A stretch of 64,000 bases of DNA from Leptospira biflexa. Its GTDB lineage: Bacteria; Spirochaetota; UBA4802; UB4802. How positions within the stretch are numbered: position 1 is the stretch's first letter; every line of letters begins with the position of its first letter. Below, one piece after another: positions 13,191-49,610 of the stretch. The stretch is from NCBI GenBank assembly GCA_020721905.1, contig DYLU01000002.1, positions 11,314 to 75,313 on the forward strand, given 5' to 3'. The notes under the pieces were generated by a model. It had not been told where the DNA came from. It made no database searches and worked only from the letters and a program-made list of their open reading frames with translations. The position numbers and the translations under genes were made by a program.

Positions 13191-13838
13191 TTATTCTTTA
13201 CACTTATACCCAACATTTCGTATGGTTTCTATTATATTATTAAACTCATCCCCCAATTTAATTCTAAGCCTTCTTATATGAACGTCAACCGTACGAGTAC
13301 CCCCAATATACTCAACCCCCCATATTTGTGAAAGTAACTCCTGACGTGTAAAAACTATACCTTTATTTTCCATTAAAAATTTAAGTAATTCAAATTCTTT
13401 ATATGTTAGCAATATATTGTCATTGTTTACTGTTACCGAATACTTTTCAGGCTCTATGGTAATATTGCCAACTTTGATAACCGAATCCTTTAATTCAATT
13501 TCAGCACCTATCAGACGATCAATACGCGCTTTTAATTCACCTTTTCTGAAAGGGAACACAATAAAATCATCAAAAAACCAGTCCCTGTTTACTGATTCTA
13601 AATATCCAGCCCGTACAATAAGTATGACTGGCAATCGCTGAAAACGCTTTCGAAGCTTTGAAAGATAAAACTGTGTATCGCTGATATCAATTTGCTCAGT
13701 ATCAAATAATGCTATATCAAATCCTTCATCCTTTAGAGTATTAATAGTACCATGAACACTTACATCTAAAATCTGAAGCATTCTTACTTCAAGAACCAAT
13801 TCCTTATTTTGTGTAATGAGTGCCGTTTTAATTTTCAT
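13191..13838 (-). CDS. OmpR/PhoB-family response regulator (receiver plus winged-helix DNA-binding domain)
   Basis: C-terminal trans_reg_C signature (LTYKEFELLKFLMENKGIVFTRQELLSQIWGVEYIGGTRTVDVHIRRLRIKLGD). N-terminal receiver-like domain. No adjacent histidine kinase. Confidence 0.7.
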   Translation of the reverse strand: MKIKTALITQNKELVLEVRMLQILDVSVHGTINTLKDEGFDIALFDTEQIDISDTQFYLSKLRKRFQRLPVILIVRAGYLESVNRDWFFDDFIVFPFRKGELKARIDRLIGAEIELKDSVIKVGNITIEPEKYSVTVNNDNILLTYKEFELLKFLMENKGIVFTRQELLSQIWGVEYIGGTRTVDVHIRRLRIKLGDEFNNIIETIRNVGYKCKE

Positions 13839-15001
13839 TTTTTATTAACTAATGTTAAAAAAATATTCATATACCGTTCTGCTACATTTTCGGCATAAAA
13901 GGTTGTAATCTTTTTTTTATTATTTACAGAACAGTATTGATAGAGCTTTTTATCATTATAAAATTTCATAATACTTTCAGCACACTTTTCCACATCACCA
14001 ACATTAATGAGCATTGCATTTTCACCATGGATAAGAAAATCAACCTGCCCCCCATGGTTGGTAGCAACAATAGGCAATCCGCAATACATGGCTTCCATAA
14101 ACACAATGCCAAATCCTTCATGCATTGATGTAAGTACAAACAAATCAGATTGCGATAGATAGGCAAATTTTTTCTCGTCGGCAACAAATCCCATAAACTG
14201 CACTCTATCGTGTAATGACAATTCTTTCACAAGTGATTCTAAGTATTCCCTTTCAGGACCATCTCCCATAATGAGAAGTTTGATGGCAGGATTATCAAAA
14301 AGAGCTATCGCCCTTATAAGAATATCAATTGATTTACGCTTTATCAATCTTCCAATAGTTATACAGATAAAATCTTTTTCATGCAGCCCCAATTTTTTCC
14401 GTGATGTTTTTGGTATTACTGGCGGATGGAATGCTAACGGTATAATCTGAATTTCTTTTTTTGGTGCATAGTATTCTATTGCGTTATTGCGGGTATTTGA
14501 TGATTGTGCCACAATTACATCAGCTCTGTTAAGGAGAAAACGAACAACAGATTTAAAAAATCGACTTCGGTGAGGTGATATTTTTTTACTTGGATCATAA
14601 ATATCACCACCATGCAATGATAAAACATTTGGAATGCCAAATAACTTTGAAATTACATACCCTAGAGGGCCTGATGGAACAACAAAATGCGTATTGATAA
14701 CATCAAACTTATATTTTAAGGCAAGCGATAGTGCCCGTATAAGCCCTGCAGGCAGGTAGCTAAGCATTGAAATAAATGTTGCTGCATCCCTTGATTTTCT
14801 GAAAAAAATCTTTACCCTGTGCACATGAATCCCATTAATATTTTCATAGGAGGGTAACCCTTTAAATGACGAAGTGATGACATGCACATTTGCTGACTTC
14901 ACCCACTCCAATGCCAGGTCATATGTTGCAACACCCCCACCCCCCCCTAATGGAGGAAATTCATAATTTATAATTAATATATTAATCTTTTTTTCTTTCA
15001 T
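13835..15001 (-). CDS. GT4-family glycosyltransferase (388 aa)
   Basis: GT4 C-terminal motif EGFGIVFMEAMYCGLPIV. N-terminal FPPLGGGGGV Gly loop. Overlaps the response regulator gene by 4 nt. Confidence 0.8.
   Translation of the reverse strand: MKEKKINILIINYEFPPLGGGGGVATYDLALEWVKSANVHVITSSFKGLPSYENINGIHVHRVKIFFRKSRDAATFISMLSYLPAGLIRALSLALKYKFDVINTHFVVPSGPLGYVISKLFGIPNVLSLHGGDIYDPSKKISPHRSRFFKSVVRFLLNRADVIVAQSSNTRNNAIEYYAPKKEIQIIPLAFHPPVIPKTSRKKLGLHEKDFICITIGRLIKRKSIDILIRAIALFDNPAIKLLIMGDGPEREYLESLVKELSLHDRVQFMGFVADEKKFAYLSQSDLFVLTSMHEGFGIVFMEAMYCGLPIVATNHGGQVDFLIHGENAMLINVGDVEKCAESIMKFYNDKKLYQYCSVNNKKKITTFYAENVAERYMNIFLTLVNKK
14935..14947. repeat. homopolymeric tract C5-A-C8 (G-run on the coding strand) inside the GT4 glycosyltransferase
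   Basis: Sequence accccc a cccccccc taatgg read directly. Encodes the GGGGG loop of the GT4 N-terminus. Confidence 0.6.
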
Positions 15002-15312
15002 ACAAAATACTCCATCTTTAACAAAAAAGGTTAAGTTTTTCTCACACTAAAACATGCCTTTTATATTTCAAATACTATTTAATCGCGCATAGCTAAAACA
15101 ATCTTCCCCCTGAACAAACTATGCATGCTATAAAAATACATTCTGGAATAAATATCCGATATAAATTAAAAAATAATGTTTTGTTAAAAATAATATTTGC
15201 CAAAATACATTAGAAGAAGGTACTATACTATAAACGCTAATGGGGAAAAATTCTATTTTATTACTAAAGGAAAAGGTTTTATCTTAATACTATCAAAAAA
15301 AGGTGGTGAATT

Positions 15313-15933
15313 ATGAAATTCTTTCAATTTTTAGCTATTATTACCACACTATCTTCATTATTTGCCTGTTCAACTATCGATGTAGCTTCTACCAATAAAC
15401 AGGCAATACAAAAAAGAATGAAGCGGGTTGCAGTATTTCCCTTTGACATAAAAGGTGCCGGCTGGGGAGATGAATTTTCAGATGCTATCTCACATCAATT
15501 TTTTAAAAGCGGAAAAGTTACTACCATTGAACGTGAAGCCATACAAAAAATTCTGCAGGAACAGCAGCTTTCTGCCTCTGGTTTAATTGACGATAAACAG
15601 GCTGTAAAAATTGGTAAATTTTTAGGTGCAGATGTTATCATCATTGGCCGTGGCTCTGCTTTACAGGCATACAGAAACAATAAGTTTGAACCCAACTGTA
15701 TTGATACTTTTACATTAAAAGCCATTAATACTGAAAATGGCGAAATTTTGCTAACCGTTCGCAAAGAACCAGGAAGGGCATGGGACTGGCGTTACAGAGC
15801 AAAGTTTTGCTGTGGATTAACATTAATCTGGAATCTCAATGATATTTTAATAGAGAGTTCACAATATGATGACATTGCAAAACAGATAGTTAAGCAAATC
15901 CTTGGTATTTTACAAGAAGAAAATAAAAGATGA
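15313..15933 (+). CDS. CsgG/TolB-N-like periplasmic lipoprotein (206 aa) with C-terminal W/CC motif
   Basis: Signal peptide plus lipobox (LSSLFAC). Core resembles the CsgG/TolB-N/FlgO-like lipoprotein fold (KRVAVFPFD...KVTTIEREAIQKILQEQQLSASGLIDDKQAVKIGKFLGADVIIIG). C-terminal WDWRYRAKFCCGL. SD aaggtgg upstream. Confidence 0.6.
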   Translation: MKFFQFLAIITTLSSLFACSTIDVASTNKQAIQKRMKRVAVFPFDIKGAGWGDEFSDAISHQFFKSGKVTTIEREAIQKILQEQQLSASGLIDDKQAVKIGKFLGADVIIIGRGSALQAYRNNKFEPNCIDTFTLKAINTENGEILLTVRKEPGRAWDWRYRAKFCCGLTLIWNLNDILIESSQYDDIAKQIVKQILGILQEENKR

Positions 15934-16709
15934 TATTTAAATGTACAACATATACCAGCCTTTTAATCCTGGTTAGTATTGTTGCTTTTTTTTCTTCTGC
16001 CTATTCATCCGAATTTGATGAGCTGGACAAGCCTCCTGAAGGTATACACAAAGATCAGATAATACTTACAGGCTCAGTTTCTATTGGCATTCCTTACGGC
16101 GATCTTATTTCAGCCGAAGAAAAATTTACTAAAACTTCAACCTACACCTTTGAGAATGAAATAACTAAACTTATTTATCTATCACATTTAGCTTTTGGAT
16201 TAACAATGTCAGGAGAATATCTTCCTATCGATTATATTGGTATTCGCTCAAAACTAAGGCGCAGTGTTATAGTTCAGAATACAAATTTTGGCGCTGACTA
16301 TCAATCCTGGAAAAAAACACTGTACAGCGATTATTCTGTTTATTTTGGCCCATCTTTTCATGTTACTAATAGAAAGCCATGGGACATTAGTTTATCACCC
16401 ATGCTTGGCTATGTATTTGCTACTTATAAGCCAACTCCTATAGCCCGCGTACTTATTGATGGGTATATACCACCGCCAACACAACAGTTTTCAAGTATGA
16501 CCTATGGTGTTGATGTTATGCTCAGCATATTTTTCAGCGGGGGGCTTGTTTTCCAGATTGGTGGGGAATGGATACGTAACAATATACTATTTTCATCAAT
16601 ACCAGATGCCGTTAATCCACAAACAAACCAGATTTTTTATACAAAGAAAGATGCCACCATTGATTCCGTTCTTTTCTGTGTTTCAGCAGGTTACGCCTTC
16701 TATAATTAA
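15930..16709 (+). CDS. putative outer-membrane beta-barrel protein (259 aa)
   Basis: N-terminal hydrophobic signal. Alternating hydrophobic beta-strand pattern. Aromatic-rich C-terminus (AGYAFYN). 4-nt overlap (ATGA) with the upstream lipoprotein gene suggests translational coupling. Confidence 0.5.
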   Translation: MIFKCTTYTSLLILVSIVAFFSSAYSSEFDELDKPPEGIHKDQIILTGSVSIGIPYGDLISAEEKFTKTSTYTFENEITKLIYLSHLAFGLTMSGEYLPIDYIGIRSKLRRSVIVQNTNFGADYQSWKKTLYSDYSVYFGPSFHVTNRKPWDISLSPMLGYVFATYKPTPIARVLIDGYIPPPTQQFSSMTYGVDVMLSIFFSGGLVFQIGGEWIRNNILFSSIPDAVNPQTNQIFYTKKDATIDSVLFCVSAGYAFYN

Positions 16710-16831
16710 TATATTTCAATTGTAATCACACTATGCAAAGATACAAATTCAATTTTCTATACATTAGCTGGACTTTGTCATATAATGCATAGTATTTCTA
16801 TTGTTTGCATCTACAATTATTTACCCGCATC

Positions 16832-17821
16832 TTATTCTATTACAGCATTGCCTGTATTAACAAGCATTGAGACGACACGTGCTGTAGTTAATTTATCCTT
16901 AGTCTTCAACTTTACAGGTAACCGCAAAAACTGATGCATACATCCTCTTCGTCTGTGTTCTAATGGGAAACTTCCATCATCAAATTGCTTCTTTATACAC
17001 TGATTAAATAACCGTATCCTGAACGCTTCAGCTGTATCGTCTAAAAAAAGTGAAAACTGAATGGCATCGATGCTATCATAGTCTAAATAAAATGGGTATC
17101 CCAGCAATTCATGATTATATGCAACTCTGCACCTGCAACCAGCTTCTGTAAATATGGCATCATTGCGGAACATATAGGCGATAGCTCTTTGAAAACTATC
17201 ATTGCAATTCCTGGTATCTATTTTCATCAGGGCTTTTGCACACATGACAGTTGCAACCGCACAACTTGGAGCATCAGTATGCACTAATCCAAGTCCTTTT
17301 CCAGTACGTTTAAAAAGCAAATATTTCAGTGAATCACCAACTGAACCGATTGGGCAATACAGCCAGCCACCATCATCCCTCTGATGAGACAGAATCCATT
17401 CTATACCTTTCTCCACTTCCTTTCCCTGATATCCGCTTTCCAGCAGGTAATACACTAACTGTCCGGTAATACATGCCGTTGAACAGAAAGGTTTCCAGTT
17501 TAAAGTAAATCCGCCATCATCCTGCTGAAATTTTAGTATTTCTTTAAGAATTGAGTACACAATATTATCACTGACATTACATCCACTTTCAACAAATGAT
17601 GAAAAAAACCACATAATCCCAATACCCGGTGCATCAAAATAATCATAGGCTTTTTTATTGAGAGAATGCAAACTGATTGAATTTACTATTACTTTGCTGT
17701 CTTTTTGTACATTATTTTCTTTTAAGGCAGGAATACTTTTTAATAAAAAAAATAATGATACTGCATCATCTGCCAACCATTGGATTACATCACCATTTAA
17801 ATATTTTGATTGAATCTTCAC
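16832..17821 (-). CDS. prenyltransferase/squalene-oxidase repeat (alpha-alpha toroid) protein, 329 aa
   Basis: Three QxxDGG[FW] repeats (QQDDGGF, HQRDDGGW, KQFDDGSF), characteristic of terpene-cyclase/prenyltransferase beta repeats. No signal peptide. Confidence 0.6.
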   Translation of the reverse strand: MKIQSKYLNGDVIQWLADDAVSLFFLLKSIPALKENNVQKDSKVIVNSISLHSLNKKAYDYFDAPGIGIMWFFSSFVESGCNVSDNIVYSILKEILKFQQDDGGFTLNWKPFCSTACITGQLVYYLLESGYQGKEVEKGIEWILSHQRDDGGWLYCPIGSVGDSLKYLLFKRTGKGLGLVHTDAPSCAVATVMCAKALMKIDTRNCNDSFQRAIAYMFRNDAIFTEAGCRCRVAYNHELLGYPFYLDYDSIDAIQFSLFLDDTAEAFRIRLFNQCIKKQFDDGSFPLEHRRRGCMHQFLRLPVKLKTKDKLTTARVVSMLVNTGNAVIE

Positions 17822-45217: not shown

Positions 45218-45853
45218 TTACAGAGGATACCTAACCCCTAACCGTATTACCAGCCCTGACATATCCAGCTCTAAATCGCCGCTTTTAAGAGGTAAACTGC
45301 GATATCCAGCTTCAGCATAAAAATCAACCTTTGAATCAGCAGCTGGTTTTAACGAAGCACCAAAAAACAATTCCCACGAAAGTCCGCTAAAAAGTTTGGT
45401 AATGGAATCTGCAGTATATGACTTGCCTGTATTTGAGTCAGTAAAATCGGGCTGTGAATAATGTAATATCATGAATGAATAGCCCAGGCCAATGGTTATA
45501 AAAGGTGTTACATACAGTTTATCCTTTAAGTTTGGCAAGCGCACCTGTGCGTTGAACATCATGGGGACAATATAAGCATTGGTATCAGCCTTAACATCAA
45601 CAAATACAGTACCTTCCTGCTTAACACCTATTTTCCTGTCCCATCGTACCCATACAAATCCCGACTCAATCCCTGTCACAAAATAAGGATCAAGGAGCCA
45701 ACTATAGCGCAACGAAAGATCAAATCCATATTTGGATGGATCACTTGCGTATGATGTTCCTAACGCGCCATTTAATTCAGTGTTTGCACTAAAACCATTT
45801 ACAGTAGTTCCTATTACTATAAGTGTAAAAAATATAATAATTATTCTTTTCAT
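45218..45853 (-). CDS. putative outer-membrane beta-barrel protein (211 aa)
   Basis: Signal peptide (MKRIIIIFFTLIVIGTTVNGFSA). Alternating amphipathic strands. C-terminal LGVRYPL. Divergent from the paralogous lipoprotein gene. Confidence 0.5.
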   Translation of the reverse strand: MKRIIIIFFTLIVIGTTVNGFSANTELNGALGTSYASDPSKYGFDLSLRYSWLLDPYFVTGIESGFVWVRWDRKIGVKQEGTVFVDVKADTNAYIVPMMFNAQVRLPNLKDKLYVTPFITIGLGYSFMILHYSQPDFTDSNTGKSYTADSITKLFSGLSWELFFGASLKPAADSKVDFYAEAGYRSLPLKSGDLELDMSGLVIRLGVRYPL

Positions 45854-46075: not shown

Positions 46076-46699
46076 ATGAAAAATTTAACACTGCTTTCAA
46101 TATTTCTTTTTATGCTTTCATGTACATCCGTAGACAAATCAGTGTACATAAAAGATAAACAGGCATTGCAAAAGCCAATACGCATTGCAGTTTTAACCTT
46201 TGTTGACGCACCCAAATACCCTGGATCGGGAATAAGTATTGCTGATGCATTGACCAATGAACTGGTTCAGATATCAAATTGGGATCTGGTGGAACGTTCA
46301 CAGATAGAGAAGATTTTAAAAGAAAAATCATTTGATATGACTGGATTAACCGATTCTCAGATTACCGATATTGGCAAATTAGCAAAAACTGACTATATCA
46401 TAGTGGGTAGTGTTTCAGATTATTATTATGACAGGCAATTTTATATTGTACCAAAAACAAAGATAGCATTCAATGCCCGCATTATCAATACACAAACAGG
46501 CAGCATTGTAGGCACTTTACGCTATAACCGTGAAACCAATAAGAATGCATGGTGCGGATGCTGTCTTTTAGGATGGTATTATCTGCCAGTGCTGTTGTTG
46601 ACTGATCAGAATATTAATACGGATGTAAGCAAAGCTGCTCGTGATGTGGTAAGAACTATCAATAAGGATGTGAGTGGCAAAAGGAGCTGTTGCATATAA
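46076..46699 (+). CDS. CsgG/TolB-N-like periplasmic lipoprotein paralog (207 aa) with C-terminal WCGCC motif
   Basis: Lipobox MLSC. Core IRIAVLTFVDAPKYPGSGISIADALTNELVQISNWDLVERSQIEKILKEKSFDMTGLTDSQITDIGKLAKTDYIIVG parallels the 15313..15933 protein. C-terminal AWCGCCLLGWYYLPVLLL ... KRSCCI. Confidence 0.6.
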   Translation: MKNLTLLSIFLFMLSCTSVDKSVYIKDKQALQKPIRIAVLTFVDAPKYPGSGISIADALTNELVQISNWDLVERSQIEKILKEKSFDMTGLTDSQITDIGKLAKTDYIIVGSVSDYYYDRQFYIVPKTKIAFNARIINTQTGSIVGTLRYNRETNKNAWCGCCLLGWYYLPVLLLTDQNINTDVSKAARDVVRTINKDVSGKRSCCI

Positions 46700-47254: not shown

Positions 47255-49075
47255 ATGAAAATTAGCAAATTCCTTTTTGCAACGTATATCTTCATTATAT
47301 TCATGATTTTTCCCACATTTTATGGATTCGCTGATACTACCATTGCAATCCATCTTGATCAGGAAATATTAAATGTAAAACCAAATACAAAAGCCTGTGC
47401 TATTGTACACATAGATTTGCCCACAAAAGGCTATATCTATGCCAACCCCAAAGGTGAGGGAACCGGAAAAGCAACAACCGCTAATGCAAAAGCAACCCAA
47501 CATATAGTACCAGGAAAAACGCGCTATCTTCCCGGAACCTTTTATATTTCACCTCTTGATAGCAAACCGGTGTATATTTATAAAAAGCACACCTCGCTCT
47601 GTATTCCATTCACAATAAATACAGCACAAGAAGGCTCATATTCTTTATCATTCATAATTGAGGCTTTATATTGCAATGATGTATCCTGCACCCCCGTACT
47701 GCAAACTGTTACCCAGATAATTAACGTTGATAAATCAGCACCTGATTTTGATACATCATTATGCACCACATATAAAGAGCCTGACGATATAATTCACACA
47801 GTAAATAAAGAAGACACGTCCGGTCATTTTAATATAATAGATGCAGGTGGTAGCTCAACACTGAGTTTGTTTCATGCAATCATTTTTGGAATTCTTGCAG
47901 GCTTTTTACTCAACTTTATGCCCTGTGTACTTCCTGTAATAAGCCTTAAAATTTTAAGTTTTATATCATATGGCAACAACAAACCAGGGAAGGTAAGGAT
48001 AATGGGATTGCTGTTTACCGCAGGGATATTAACATCTTTCTTGGCACTGGCTTCGCTTGCAGCATTTGCCGGTTATAACTGGGGTGAGCTTTTTCAACAT
48101 AAAATTTTTATTATTATCATGGCAGCCATAATTTTTGCACTGGCTTTATCGTTTTTTGGTGTGTATACATTCAATATTCCACAGCTCTCACTATTGCAAA
48201 GTGCCAATGTCTATTTAGATTCATATTTCAAAGGAATAGTTGCCACACTTCTTGCTACCCCCTGCAGTGGTCCTTTTTTGGGGGCTACACTGGCATGGTC
48301 ATTAACGCAGCATCCTGTAATAATTTTTATAATTTTTATTAACATTGGTCTTGGCATGTCACTTCCATACCTGCTTTTATCATTTTATCCGTCACTTATC
48401 AGATTCATCCCCAAATCCGGAGACTGGATGATAACATTTGAGCAGTTTATGGGATTTTTAATGGTTGCCACCACCATCTACCTTATATCATTACTTGATG
48501 CAGGTACATTGACAACAACTATCTGGTTTTTGTTACTTGTATCCATTGGATTATGGCAATGGGGGCGGTTTGGGAATATAACAAAACCATCAATACAGCG
48601 AATAATTTCATTTGTTGTGCTTGTGCTACTTGTTGTTTCTGCTAGCATGATATTTTCCAGCAAAAAAACATCAAAAGCTGAAATAACCTACAAGCCTTTT
48701 GACTGGGAGGAGATAGTTCATAACAATACATCACAGGTTTCAATGGTCATTTTTACTGCTGAGTGGTGCCCCAACTGCAAATTCGTTGAGGCTACAGCAT
48801 TATCATCTTCCAGTATTATTGAATTCATATATAAAAATAATATCTCTGTCTACAAAGCCGATATCACCACAAAGAATCCGCCAGCAGAGAGCATATTACT
48901 ACAACTTGGTTCACGATCGATACCGTTTGTGGCTATCTTCCCTTCAGGAGGTAATTTTTCACAGCCTGTTATACTGCGTGATATTTATACAGCAAAAGAT
49001 TTATTGAAGGCTTTGCAAAAAGCCCTGGAATTGAGTAAACAATCAGAGATCCCTCAACTGATGACTATCCCTTAA
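47255..49075 (+). CDS. dsbD: thiol:disulfide interchange protein DsbD-like (N-terminal periplasmic domain, CcdA-type TM core, C-terminal thioredoxin)
   Basis: TM-core Cys pair (MPCVLPV ... PCSGPF). C-terminal thioredoxin WCPNCK. N-terminal signal peptide. Confidence 0.8.
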   Translation: MKISKFLFATYIFIIFMIFPTFYGFADTTIAIHLDQEILNVKPNTKACAIVHIDLPTKGYIYANPKGEGTGKATTANAKATQHIVPGKTRYLPGTFYISPLDSKPVYIYKKHTSLCIPFTINTAQEGSYSLSFIIEALYCNDVSCTPVLQTVTQIINVDKSAPDFDTSLCTTYKEPDDIIHTVNKEDTSGHFNIIDAGGSSTLSLFHAIIFGILAGFLLNFMPCVLPVISLKILSFISYGNNKPGKVRIMGLLFTAGILTSFLALASLAAFAGYNWGELFQHKIFIIIMAAIIFALALSFFGVYTFNIPQLSLLQSANVYLDSYFKGIVATLLATPCSGPFLGATLAWSLTQHPVIIFIIFINIGLGMSLPYLLLSFYPSLIRFIPKSGDWMITFEQFMGFLMVATTIYLISLLDAGTLTTTIWFLLLVSIGLWQWGRFGNITKPSIQRIISFVVLVLLVVSASMIFSSKKTSKAEITYKPFDWEEIVHNNTSQVSMVIFTAEWCPNCKFVEATALSSSSIIEFIYKNNISVYKADITTKNPPAESILLQLGSRSIPFVAIFPSGGNFSQPVILRDIYTAKDLLKALQKALELSKQSEIPQLMTIP

Positions 49076-49085
49076 AGGTATACCA

Positions 49086-49610
49086 ATGCAATCACTCAAA
49101 TATTACCATGAACTAATACAAAAAGTTGATGCATTTACAGACTCTGTCGTTTCAAAGTACGGCTACCAATTGCATTGCAGAGAGGGCTGCAGCAGTTGTT
49201 GTATACTGGAAAGTGTAATGCCCGTTGAACTTGTATCAATAGCACAATGGTTTGCAAAACAACCTGAATCAATACGATCTATAATTAAACAGGGAGATAC
49301 ACATTTCTGTATGTTTTTGCATAACAATAGATGCATTATCTATCCCATAAGACCTGTAATTTGCAGAACCCATGGCTACCCGGTCTTCATCCATAACAGT
49401 GTTGATATCTGCCCATTAAATAATAATATAAGCTTTGAACCAGAGTATATTCTTAATTTAGAGAACTGTAATACAATGCTTGCAGCTATTAATATTTTAT
49501 TCATTAAGGAAGTACAGATTCCTGCATTACAGACAGAACGCATTAATCTACGGGCGTTTTTTCAAAGCTCTGAAACCGATATCCTTTCTATAGTGCATAC
49601 CCTCAAATGA
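49086..49610 (+). CDS. YkgJ/UPF0153-family CxxCxxCC protein (second copy, 174 aa)
   Basis: CREGCSSCC motif and downstream Cys residues (CMFLHNNRCIIYPIRPVICRTHG). 3' end overlaps the convergent purD by 63 nt. Confidence 0.65.
   Translation: MQSLKYYHELIQKVDAFTDSVVSKYGYQLHCREGCSSCCILESVMPVELVSIAQWFAKQPESIRSIIKQGDTHFCMFLHNNRCIIYPIRPVICRTHGYPVFIHNSVDICPLNNNISFEPEYILNLENCNTMLAAINILFIKEVQIPALQTERINLRAFFQSSETDILSIVHTLK

Follow-up and report, generated by a model that had tools for sequence, protein, structure and literature searches.

A bicistronic operon for a PelC/CsgG-N/LpoB-fold lipoprotein and a predicted eight-stranded outer-membrane barrel in an uncultured Leptospirales-like spirochaete

Among the lipoproteins of bacterial envelopes, three stand closest to the one described here. 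CsgG builds a 36-stranded barrel out of two transmembrane hairpins, PelC forms a dodecameric ring, and LpoB carries a long disordered linker between its lipid anchor and its globular domain. Work with CsgG has placed its constriction at stacked rings of Tyr66, Asn70 and Phe71 in precursor numbering (PMC7304575). For PelC, it has been shown that the 16-stranded PelB porin sits on the PelC ring, and that assembly of PelBC depends on Trp149 of PelC, a residue that swings into the membrane and clamps acyl chains there (PMC12141448). The subject of the present work is a related lipoprotein, lipo1, encoded immediately ahead of a small predicted outer-membrane barrel, barrel1, at what we call locus 1 of a 64,000-nt window of spirochaete DNA deposited as Leptospira biflexa (assembly GCA_020721905.1, contig DYLU01000002.1, positions 11,314 to 75,313). 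All positions given below count from the first nucleotide of this window.

The two genes of locus 1 form an envelope operon in an uncultured, Leptospirales-like spirochaete (Table 1). A preliminary description of the window, made from its letters alone, had read there two open reading frames coupled by an ATGA overlap, the first encoding a lipobox lipoprotein, and these readings were borne out: the signal peptide of lipo1 ends in LFA-C19, and 90% or more of the homologues in the family alignment keep Cys19. A Shine-Dalgarno-like AAGGTGG precedes the lipo1 start codon, and the TTGCCA-18-TACTAT block farther upstream, which would serve as the promoter, is also conserved between the genes in three related genomes. 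An Rfam scan of positions 14900-16900 returned only sub-threshold noise, and the single terminator-like site was discarded as lying inside the lipo1 gene and being at chance level. Dozens of homologues were recovered for each protein, at identities falling from 96% to about 40%, and this range indicates that both are real genes under selection. They occur in 27 spirochaete genome bins at 47-96% identity; all come from metagenome-assembled Spirochaetota, mostly of digesters and sediments, whose depositors labeled them Leptospirales or Leptospiraceae. In the databases, the lipoprotein goes by "CsgG/HfaB family protein" or "curli assembly protein CsgG", and the homologues of barrel1 by "hypothetical protein" only.

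Table 1. Positions of the two loci and of adjoining features in the 64,000-nt window
Feature	Position	Strand	Remarks
OmpR-type regulator gene	13191..13838	-	winged-helix type
GT4 (family 4) glycosyltransferase gene	13835..15001	-	divergent from lipo1; Pfam Glycos_transf_1, 5e-46; neighbor in most, not all, loci
Second intergenic block, TTTTTCTCACACTACAACATGCCTTTTATATTTCAAATACTATT	15038..15080	+	near the GT4 start
Promoter-like site, TTGCCA-18 nt-TACTAT	15197..15226	+	consensus scan; about 90 bp 5′ of the lipo1 start; function inferred
lipo1	15313..15933	+	206-aa lipoprotein; TolB-N/LpoB/CsgG-N/PelC fold
Signal peptide and lipobox of lipo1	15313..15369	+	residues 1-19, LFA-C19, lipidated Cys19; read from sequence
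Trp-rich amphipathic segment of lipo1	15775..15852	+	residues 155-180; C166-C167 at 15808-15813
ATGA stop/start overlap, lipo1-barrel1	15930..15933	+	read from sequence
barrel1	15930..16709	+	259 aa; predicted 8-stranded outer-membrane beta-barrel; sequence family without a model
Mature N-terminal peptide of barrel1, SEFDELDKPPEG	16008..16043	+	residues 27-38; near-invariant; predicted periplasmic
Squalene-cyclase-like gene	16832..17821	-	329 aa; alpha/alpha-toroid; convergent with barrel1, its most persistent neighbor
barrel2	45218..45853	-	211-aa putative outer-membrane protein; divergent from lipo2
lipo2	46076..46699	+	207-aa lipoprotein paralogue; WCGCC (residues 159-163) and C-terminal CC
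DsbD-like thiol:disulfide transporter gene	47255..49075	+	DsbD_TM and thioredoxin domains; 0.55 kb 3′ of lipo2
Small-protein gene	49086..49610	+	next after the DsbD-like gene

Within a fold family that is known and very large, the lipoprotein represents a new branch. Its core had been likened beforehand to CsgG and TolB-N, and profile searches agreed, with lipo1 passing both the Pfam CsgG model (PF03783; 39.9 bits, threshold 20.8) and the LpoB model (PF13036; 30.9 bits, threshold 22.3). In Foldseek searches, which were run on PDB libraries, PelC (5t0z, 5t10 and 9h80) was the top solved match with a template-modeling score of up to 0.68, and the lipo1 model has the PelC fold; CsgG was not among the matches at E < 0.03. 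By sequence, the two family profiles found no usable match among all PDB chains. The core domain is very common: when 1.84 billion representatives were searched with the profile, it turned up in 23,683 clusters, frequently in large proteins that carry it in tandem, and only about 30 of these clusters match lipo1 over its full length, tail included. As a separate observation, metagenome proteins of 450-1200 aa (P0145, P0150, P0152, P0162 and others) carry three to six tandem copies of the CsgG-N/LpoB-like core, an architecture unlike any characterized single-domain lipoprotein. A search for CsgG-like lipoproteins in Leptospira or other spirochaetes found only a generic annotation in Brachyspira.

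PelC and lipo1 are small lipoproteins alike, each with a conserved Trp toward the C-terminal end of its domain, and each is encoded together with an outer-membrane barrel partner. However, PelC shares only 10-13% sequence identity with lipo1, and its partner PelB is a 16-stranded porin with a tetratricopeptide repeat (TPR) arm where that of lipo1 has eight strands. The lipo1 tail of about 50 residues is also longer than that of PelC and holds a strongly beta-periodic segment, and there are no pel genes near locus 1. LpoB (4q6l) is kin at the level of the Pfam domain, yet lipo1 fails its equivalog model TIGR02722 (30.5 bits, cut-off 110.55), has an extra hydrophobic tail and C-terminal helix, and lacks the long flexible tether that follows the lipid anchor of LpoB. 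In fact, a near-invariant STIDVA stands right after Cys19, and the first predicted strand (residues 22-26) begins only 2-3 residues past it. With a conserved strand immediately beyond the lipidated Cys, there is no tether, and the domain has to rest on the membrane.

The likeness to CsgG (6lqh), by comparison, covers only part of that protein. Both are lipoproteins with a lipobox, and the above-threshold Pfam match runs over the N-terminal half of lipo1, where it takes in profile positions 36-97 of 210. When the family of lipo2, a paralogue encoded elsewhere in the window, was aligned with Escherichia coli CsgG by hhalign, the two were collinear from the lipobox to one strand (INTxTGxI / VNVSTGEIL; for lipo1, VNVSTGEIL / INTENGEIL), and the alignment ended before the second membrane hairpin (TM2). 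Within the aligned stretch, the lipo2 family has a 13-residue deletion, which we take to fall at the first membrane hairpin (TM1), and a 5-residue deletion at the Tyr/Asn/Phe constriction loop, with no Y/N/F triad; the hydrophobic segment of lipo1 presumably occupies the place of TM2. The ranges of both hairpins are reportedly those of Goyal et al. 2014. With TM1 and the constriction loop missing, lipo1 cannot be counted as a curli-type channel, and support is lacking for the CsgG/CsgF-like secretion role proposed at the outset. The alignments thus present lipo1, at 206 aa as against the 277 aa of CsgG, as a protein sharing the fold and some sequence of the CsgG periplasmic core without its channel-making parts. 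Genes for csgE, csgF or curlin were not among the neighbors of locus 1, which are the GT4 enzyme, a response regulator, the barrel, the cyclase-like protein and a TPR protein.

Past the final strand of its core, and ahead of a conserved amphipathic helix at the C-terminus, lipo1 has a Trp/Cys segment (residues 155-173), of which residues 157-169 read WDWRYRAKFCCGL. Such a segment had been noted previously as the end of the lipoprotein; the segment itself is real, but its placement was wrong, since some 37 of the 206 residues, the conserved helix among them, follow residue 169. In the close family, conservation reaches 90% or more at W157, C166, W173, D177, Y185 and D186, with C167 more variable, and across 20 distant full-length representatives G154 and W157 still reach at least 90%. 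Residues 155-167 (R-A-W-D-W-R-Y-R-A-K-F/Y-C-C) show the strongest two-residue periodicity of the mature protein, ranking 1-3 of 177 windows in family-averaged hydrophobicity, with a moment mu(180 deg) of about 1.1 versus about 0.05 for mu(100 deg). This strict periodicity is seen in close and distant alignments alike, and W157-W173 is the most hydrophobic 17-mer of mature lipo1. Taken with the absent tether, the conservation, periodicity and hydrophobicity of the segment point to a membrane-contacting element, with the cysteines as what would be small apolar residues at its tip.

The Cys-Cys pair is the less durable feature of the segment. It is kept in 48 of 65 close lipo1 homologues versus 3 of the 20 distant full-length relatives, nine of which have no Cys at all past residue 130, and the residues found at the CC positions of distant relatives are L, I, M, A, V, S, T or G. 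By this count, the motif is clade-specific rather than a family signature, contrary to the conserved vicinal-Cys tail that was first described.

The second protein, barrel1, belongs to a new and previously unnamed sequence family of known fold. Its AlphaFold2 (AF2) model, built from 37 sequences, has a predicted local distance difference test (pLDDT) score of 91.5 and eight long antiparallel strands; behind a signal peptide, these membrane-length strands close a barrel. The 259-aa outer-membrane barrel predicted earlier is thereby supported by a confident OmpW/OmpA-like model. The fold is shared with OmpW, the N-terminal domains of OmpA and OprF, NspA, PagL and the Legionella Dot/Icm porin III (9nh2), but there is no match to these at the level of sequence: searches of Pfam and NCBIfam gave nothing at E up to 1 but noise, and no PDB entry matched barrel1 by sequence. 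What sets the family apart is a near-invariant N-terminal peptide and an invariant FSGG periplasmic turn. At the C-terminus, where an aromatic beta-signal would be looked for, an invariant GYAF precedes two further residues (S/Y/K/T and N/H, in this order), and the aromatic stands at position -3 instead of last. No Cys is conserved among the 37 sequences.

The N-terminal peptide lies directly past the predicted signal-peptidase site and reads S-x-F-[DE]-E-L-[DE]-[KL]-P-P-[EA]-G, nearly without exception; F29, E31-K34 and P36-G38 are the invariant columns of the 37-sequence alignment, and the variants of the peptide come from 25 genome loci. Its low pLDDT suggests flexibility in the monomer. 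Attachment to peptidoglycan through Lys34 was considered and set aside, as several loci have Leu in its place. When conservation was mapped onto the topology, on the assumption of periplasmic termini as in all even-stranded outer-membrane proteins, the N-tail scored 0.82 and the periplasmic turns 0.71-0.97, as against 0.44-0.68 for the outer loops and 0.56-0.69 for the strands. Since the N-tail and the periplasmic turns are the most conserved parts, the functional face of barrel1 looks periplasmic.

The pairing of the two genes depends on the side from which it is viewed. In a lipoprotein-seeded set of 27 spirochaete loci (one genome per species), the barrel lies immediately 3′ on the same strand in 25, joined by a 4-bp overlap in 14, by a 1-bp overlap in one and across 5-85 bp in the others. 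A barrel-seeded set was also drawn up by searching metagenome contigs for the barrel motif, and of its 62 loci, 55 had room for an upstream gene and 49 for a downstream one. Here the lipoprotein is next to the barrel in just 23 of the 55 and missing from 32, its place being taken by an unrelated gene, for a 3-hydroxyacyl-CoA dehydrogenase or a DUF3857/3858 protein. Thus, the conserved pairing that had been expected stands from the lipoprotein side and is weaker from the barrel side: this lipoprotein subfamily is almost always found with the barrel, and the barrel family is broader and has no need of the lipoprotein. At two loci (L053 and L054) the lipoprotein homologue upstream of the barrel, separated from it by 281 nt, matches query residues 19-72 only; the gene may be decayed or frameshifted there.

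Considering these patterns together, we tentatively favor, at slightly less than even confidence, a membrane-hugging accessory lipoprotein that is co-expressed with the small barrel and probably docks under it. The alpha/beta core of lipo1, starting beside the lipidated Cys, would be held flat on the membrane, presumably the outer one, and perhaps as an oligomer. The W157...W173 segment would dip into the periplasmic leaflet, much like Trp149 of PelC, and the two cysteines at the tip of this element would count as small and apolar side chains, not as a redox or metal site. The periplasmic face of barrel1, that is, its flexible N-terminal peptide and its turns, would provide the docking surface, and lipo1 would sit beneath it as an accessory or stabilizing subunit in a layout analogous to PelC-PelB or LptE-LptD. 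A polymer-secretion pore is not part of this proposal, since an eight-stranded barrel lacks a suitable lumen.

Elsewhere in the window, a second and divergent copy of the lipoprotein-barrel pair had been proposed, and only half of it stands. Its lipoprotein, lipo2, is a true paralogue (30% identity to lipo1, E=9e-19; Pfam CsgG match 8e-12) and does carry the WCGCC motif; however, barrel2 is unrelated to barrel1, on the opposite strand and not translationally coupled. A BLASTP comparison of the two barrels detected no similarity (E=0.057), and remote homology was dropped as a candidate when hhalign of the barrel1 family matched signal peptides only. The barrel1 N-terminal motif is absent from barrel2, which has a weak, sub-threshold match to OMP_b-brl and no PDB match by sequence. 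Adjacency of barrel2 and lipo2 is found only in a close relative (L041; 86% identity), and four lipo2 homologues at 53-61% identity have wholly different neighbors and no barrel2. With barrel2 unrelated, divergent and lost from the neighborhood in relatives, the "repeated two-gene architecture" of the preliminary description is coincidental.

On the lipo2 branch, CC occurs in 19 of 20 close homologues, GCC is well conserved in the family alignment, and the lipo2 equivalent of the 17-residue segment, WCGCCLLGWYYLPVLLL, is uniformly apolar. The lipo2 family has in addition a conserved K/R-G-C-(C/L) at its C-terminal end (residues 203-207; 10 of 12 aligned sequences), which is without equivalent in the lipo1 family and whose Cys could conceivably pair with those of GCC. 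Downstream of lipo2 are the DsbD-like gene and then a gene for a small protein, of which a relative is annotated with a CxxCxxCC domain (PF03692). Both keep their adjacency to lipo2 only in L041; a link between the DsbD-like protein and the Cys motif was rejected, the adjacency being gone in distant lipo2 homologues.

Several findings weigh against docking of lipo1 under barrel1. The AF2 model of lipo1 renders the tail as two short helices (pLDDT 67-74) with no hairpin, and the equation of W157 or W173 with PelC Trp149 is a positional analogy only. To our knowledge, sorting of spirochaete lipoproteins to the outer or the inner membrane is not readable from sequence. The remaining points concern genome context and, along with the above-threshold LpoB match, also favor a rival explanation, that two independent envelope proteins merely share one transcript: the lipoprotein is missing from most barrel-seeded loci; two lipo1 homologues (L019 and L023) stand alone in unrelated contexts, and the lipo2 branch likewise stands without a barrel; and a convergent squalene-cyclase-like gene lies beside the barrel in 38 of 49 loci, a tighter link than that of the lipoprotein. 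The cyclase-like protein matches squalene-hopene cyclase 2sqc (phmmer E 7.6e-8) and no Pfam model at threshold; it is a single alpha/alpha-toroid with DDGG(W/F) repeats, has homologues in L058, L075, L088 and other loci, and in L088 its gene overlaps ispD.

Were the two proteins independent, the lipoprotein could serve in the periplasm as a scaffold or a regulator, in the manner of LpoB and further lipoproteins of the TolB-N fold. The barrel could, for example, let a hydrophobic compound through as OmpW/AlkL do, perhaps one tied to the terpene-cyclase-like neighbor. We regard this as unlikely, though a serious contender. It leaves unexplained the adjacency in 25 of 27 loci, with its frequent 4-bp overlap, over 47-96% identity, and the concentration of barrel conservation on the periplasmic face. 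The cyclase-like gene, moreover, is convergent and so not co-transcribed with the barrel, and its product has no signal peptide, while an LpoB-like role fits poorly with the missing tether and the equivalog score.

Another conceivable arrangement is a CsgG-like composite pore, in which a lipoprotein oligomer would contribute one beta-hairpin per subunit, at the TM2 position, to an 18- to 24-stranded barrel, and the N-terminal peptide of barrel1 would make that protein an adaptor or plug, the role that CsgF has with CsgG. The Pfam CsgG match, the collinear alignment to E. coli CsgG as far as the strand before TM2, and the strict alternation of aromatic and basic residues over 155-167 (mu(180 deg) 1.12, mu(100 deg) 0.03) are all in keeping with it, and barrel1 has in its invariant N-terminal peptide a reminder of the inserted N-terminus of CsgF (PMC7304575). 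Even so, it appears improbable: TM1 and the constriction loop are both missing, the return strand would have only about five apolar residues, and the corresponding lipo2 segment is uniformly apolar instead of amphipathic. In its most explicit form, a shade more improbable still, the lipoprotein would be a stripped-down relative of CsgG that has lost TM1, whose Trp/Arg-alternating hairpins with a Cys-Cys tip, one from each subunit, form a new oligomeric outer-membrane pore, the N-terminal peptide of barrel1 being inserted as a CsgF-like adaptor or gate. If true, such a pore with a barrel gate would be a previously unseen secretion device of spirochaetes.

A Pel-like exopolysaccharide exporter is also conceivable, assembled from the GT4 enzyme, the PelC-like lipoprotein, the outer-membrane barrel and a periplasmic TPR protein. 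PelC is after all the top structural match of lipo1, the GT4 gene is divergent from it, a secreted TPR protein is encoded nearby, and the GT4 protein matches the PelF model at 67.9 bits. That match nevertheless falls short of the cut-off (100), and the protein scores better with BshA-type models. Moreover, the eight strands of barrel1 compare with 16 in the PelB that sits on the PelC ring (PMC12141448), equivalents of PelA, D, E and G were not found in the neighborhood, and the TPR protein is, like the GT4 gene, a frequent but inconstant neighbor. We therefore consider an exporter of this kind very improbable. Least credible of all is a functional redox or metal site at the vicinal cysteines, as originally suggested, since for all their retention in close homologues of both types, the further conserved Cys motif of lipo2 and the nearby DsbD-like gene, the pair survives in only 3 of 20 distant relatives, which leaves such dependence without basis, its replacements are small or apolar, barrel1 has no conserved Cys to pair with, and the DsbD adjacency is gone in distant lipo2 homologues.

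On the far side of locus 1, the GT4 protein itself gave only generic NCBIfam matches, all under their cut-offs. Its gene end is overlapped by 4 bp by the OmpR-type regulator gene, the N-terminal half of whose product matches a GlnR-type atypical receiver domain. This arrangement suggests a GT4-regulator operon divergent from that of the lipoprotein. The second intergenic block is conserved in four genomes and may be the promoter or leader of the GT4 gene.

Altogether, locus 1 is a genuine, conserved and uncharacterized envelope operon of familiar parts, and of the features that made it look unusual, the CC motif is lineage-specific and the second copy incidental. The main effect of this work is to correct an over-reading: a "CsgG" annotation implies no curli-type channel here, and the double cysteine is not a signature of the lipoprotein family. 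Spirochaete outer membranes are poorly understood, with few lipoprotein-barrel partnerships defined. If the proposed complex is real, it would show the PelC/CsgG-N/LpoB fold docking under a minimal eight-stranded barrel rather than a large porin, and a barrel family without a Pfam or NCBIfam model would gain a function.

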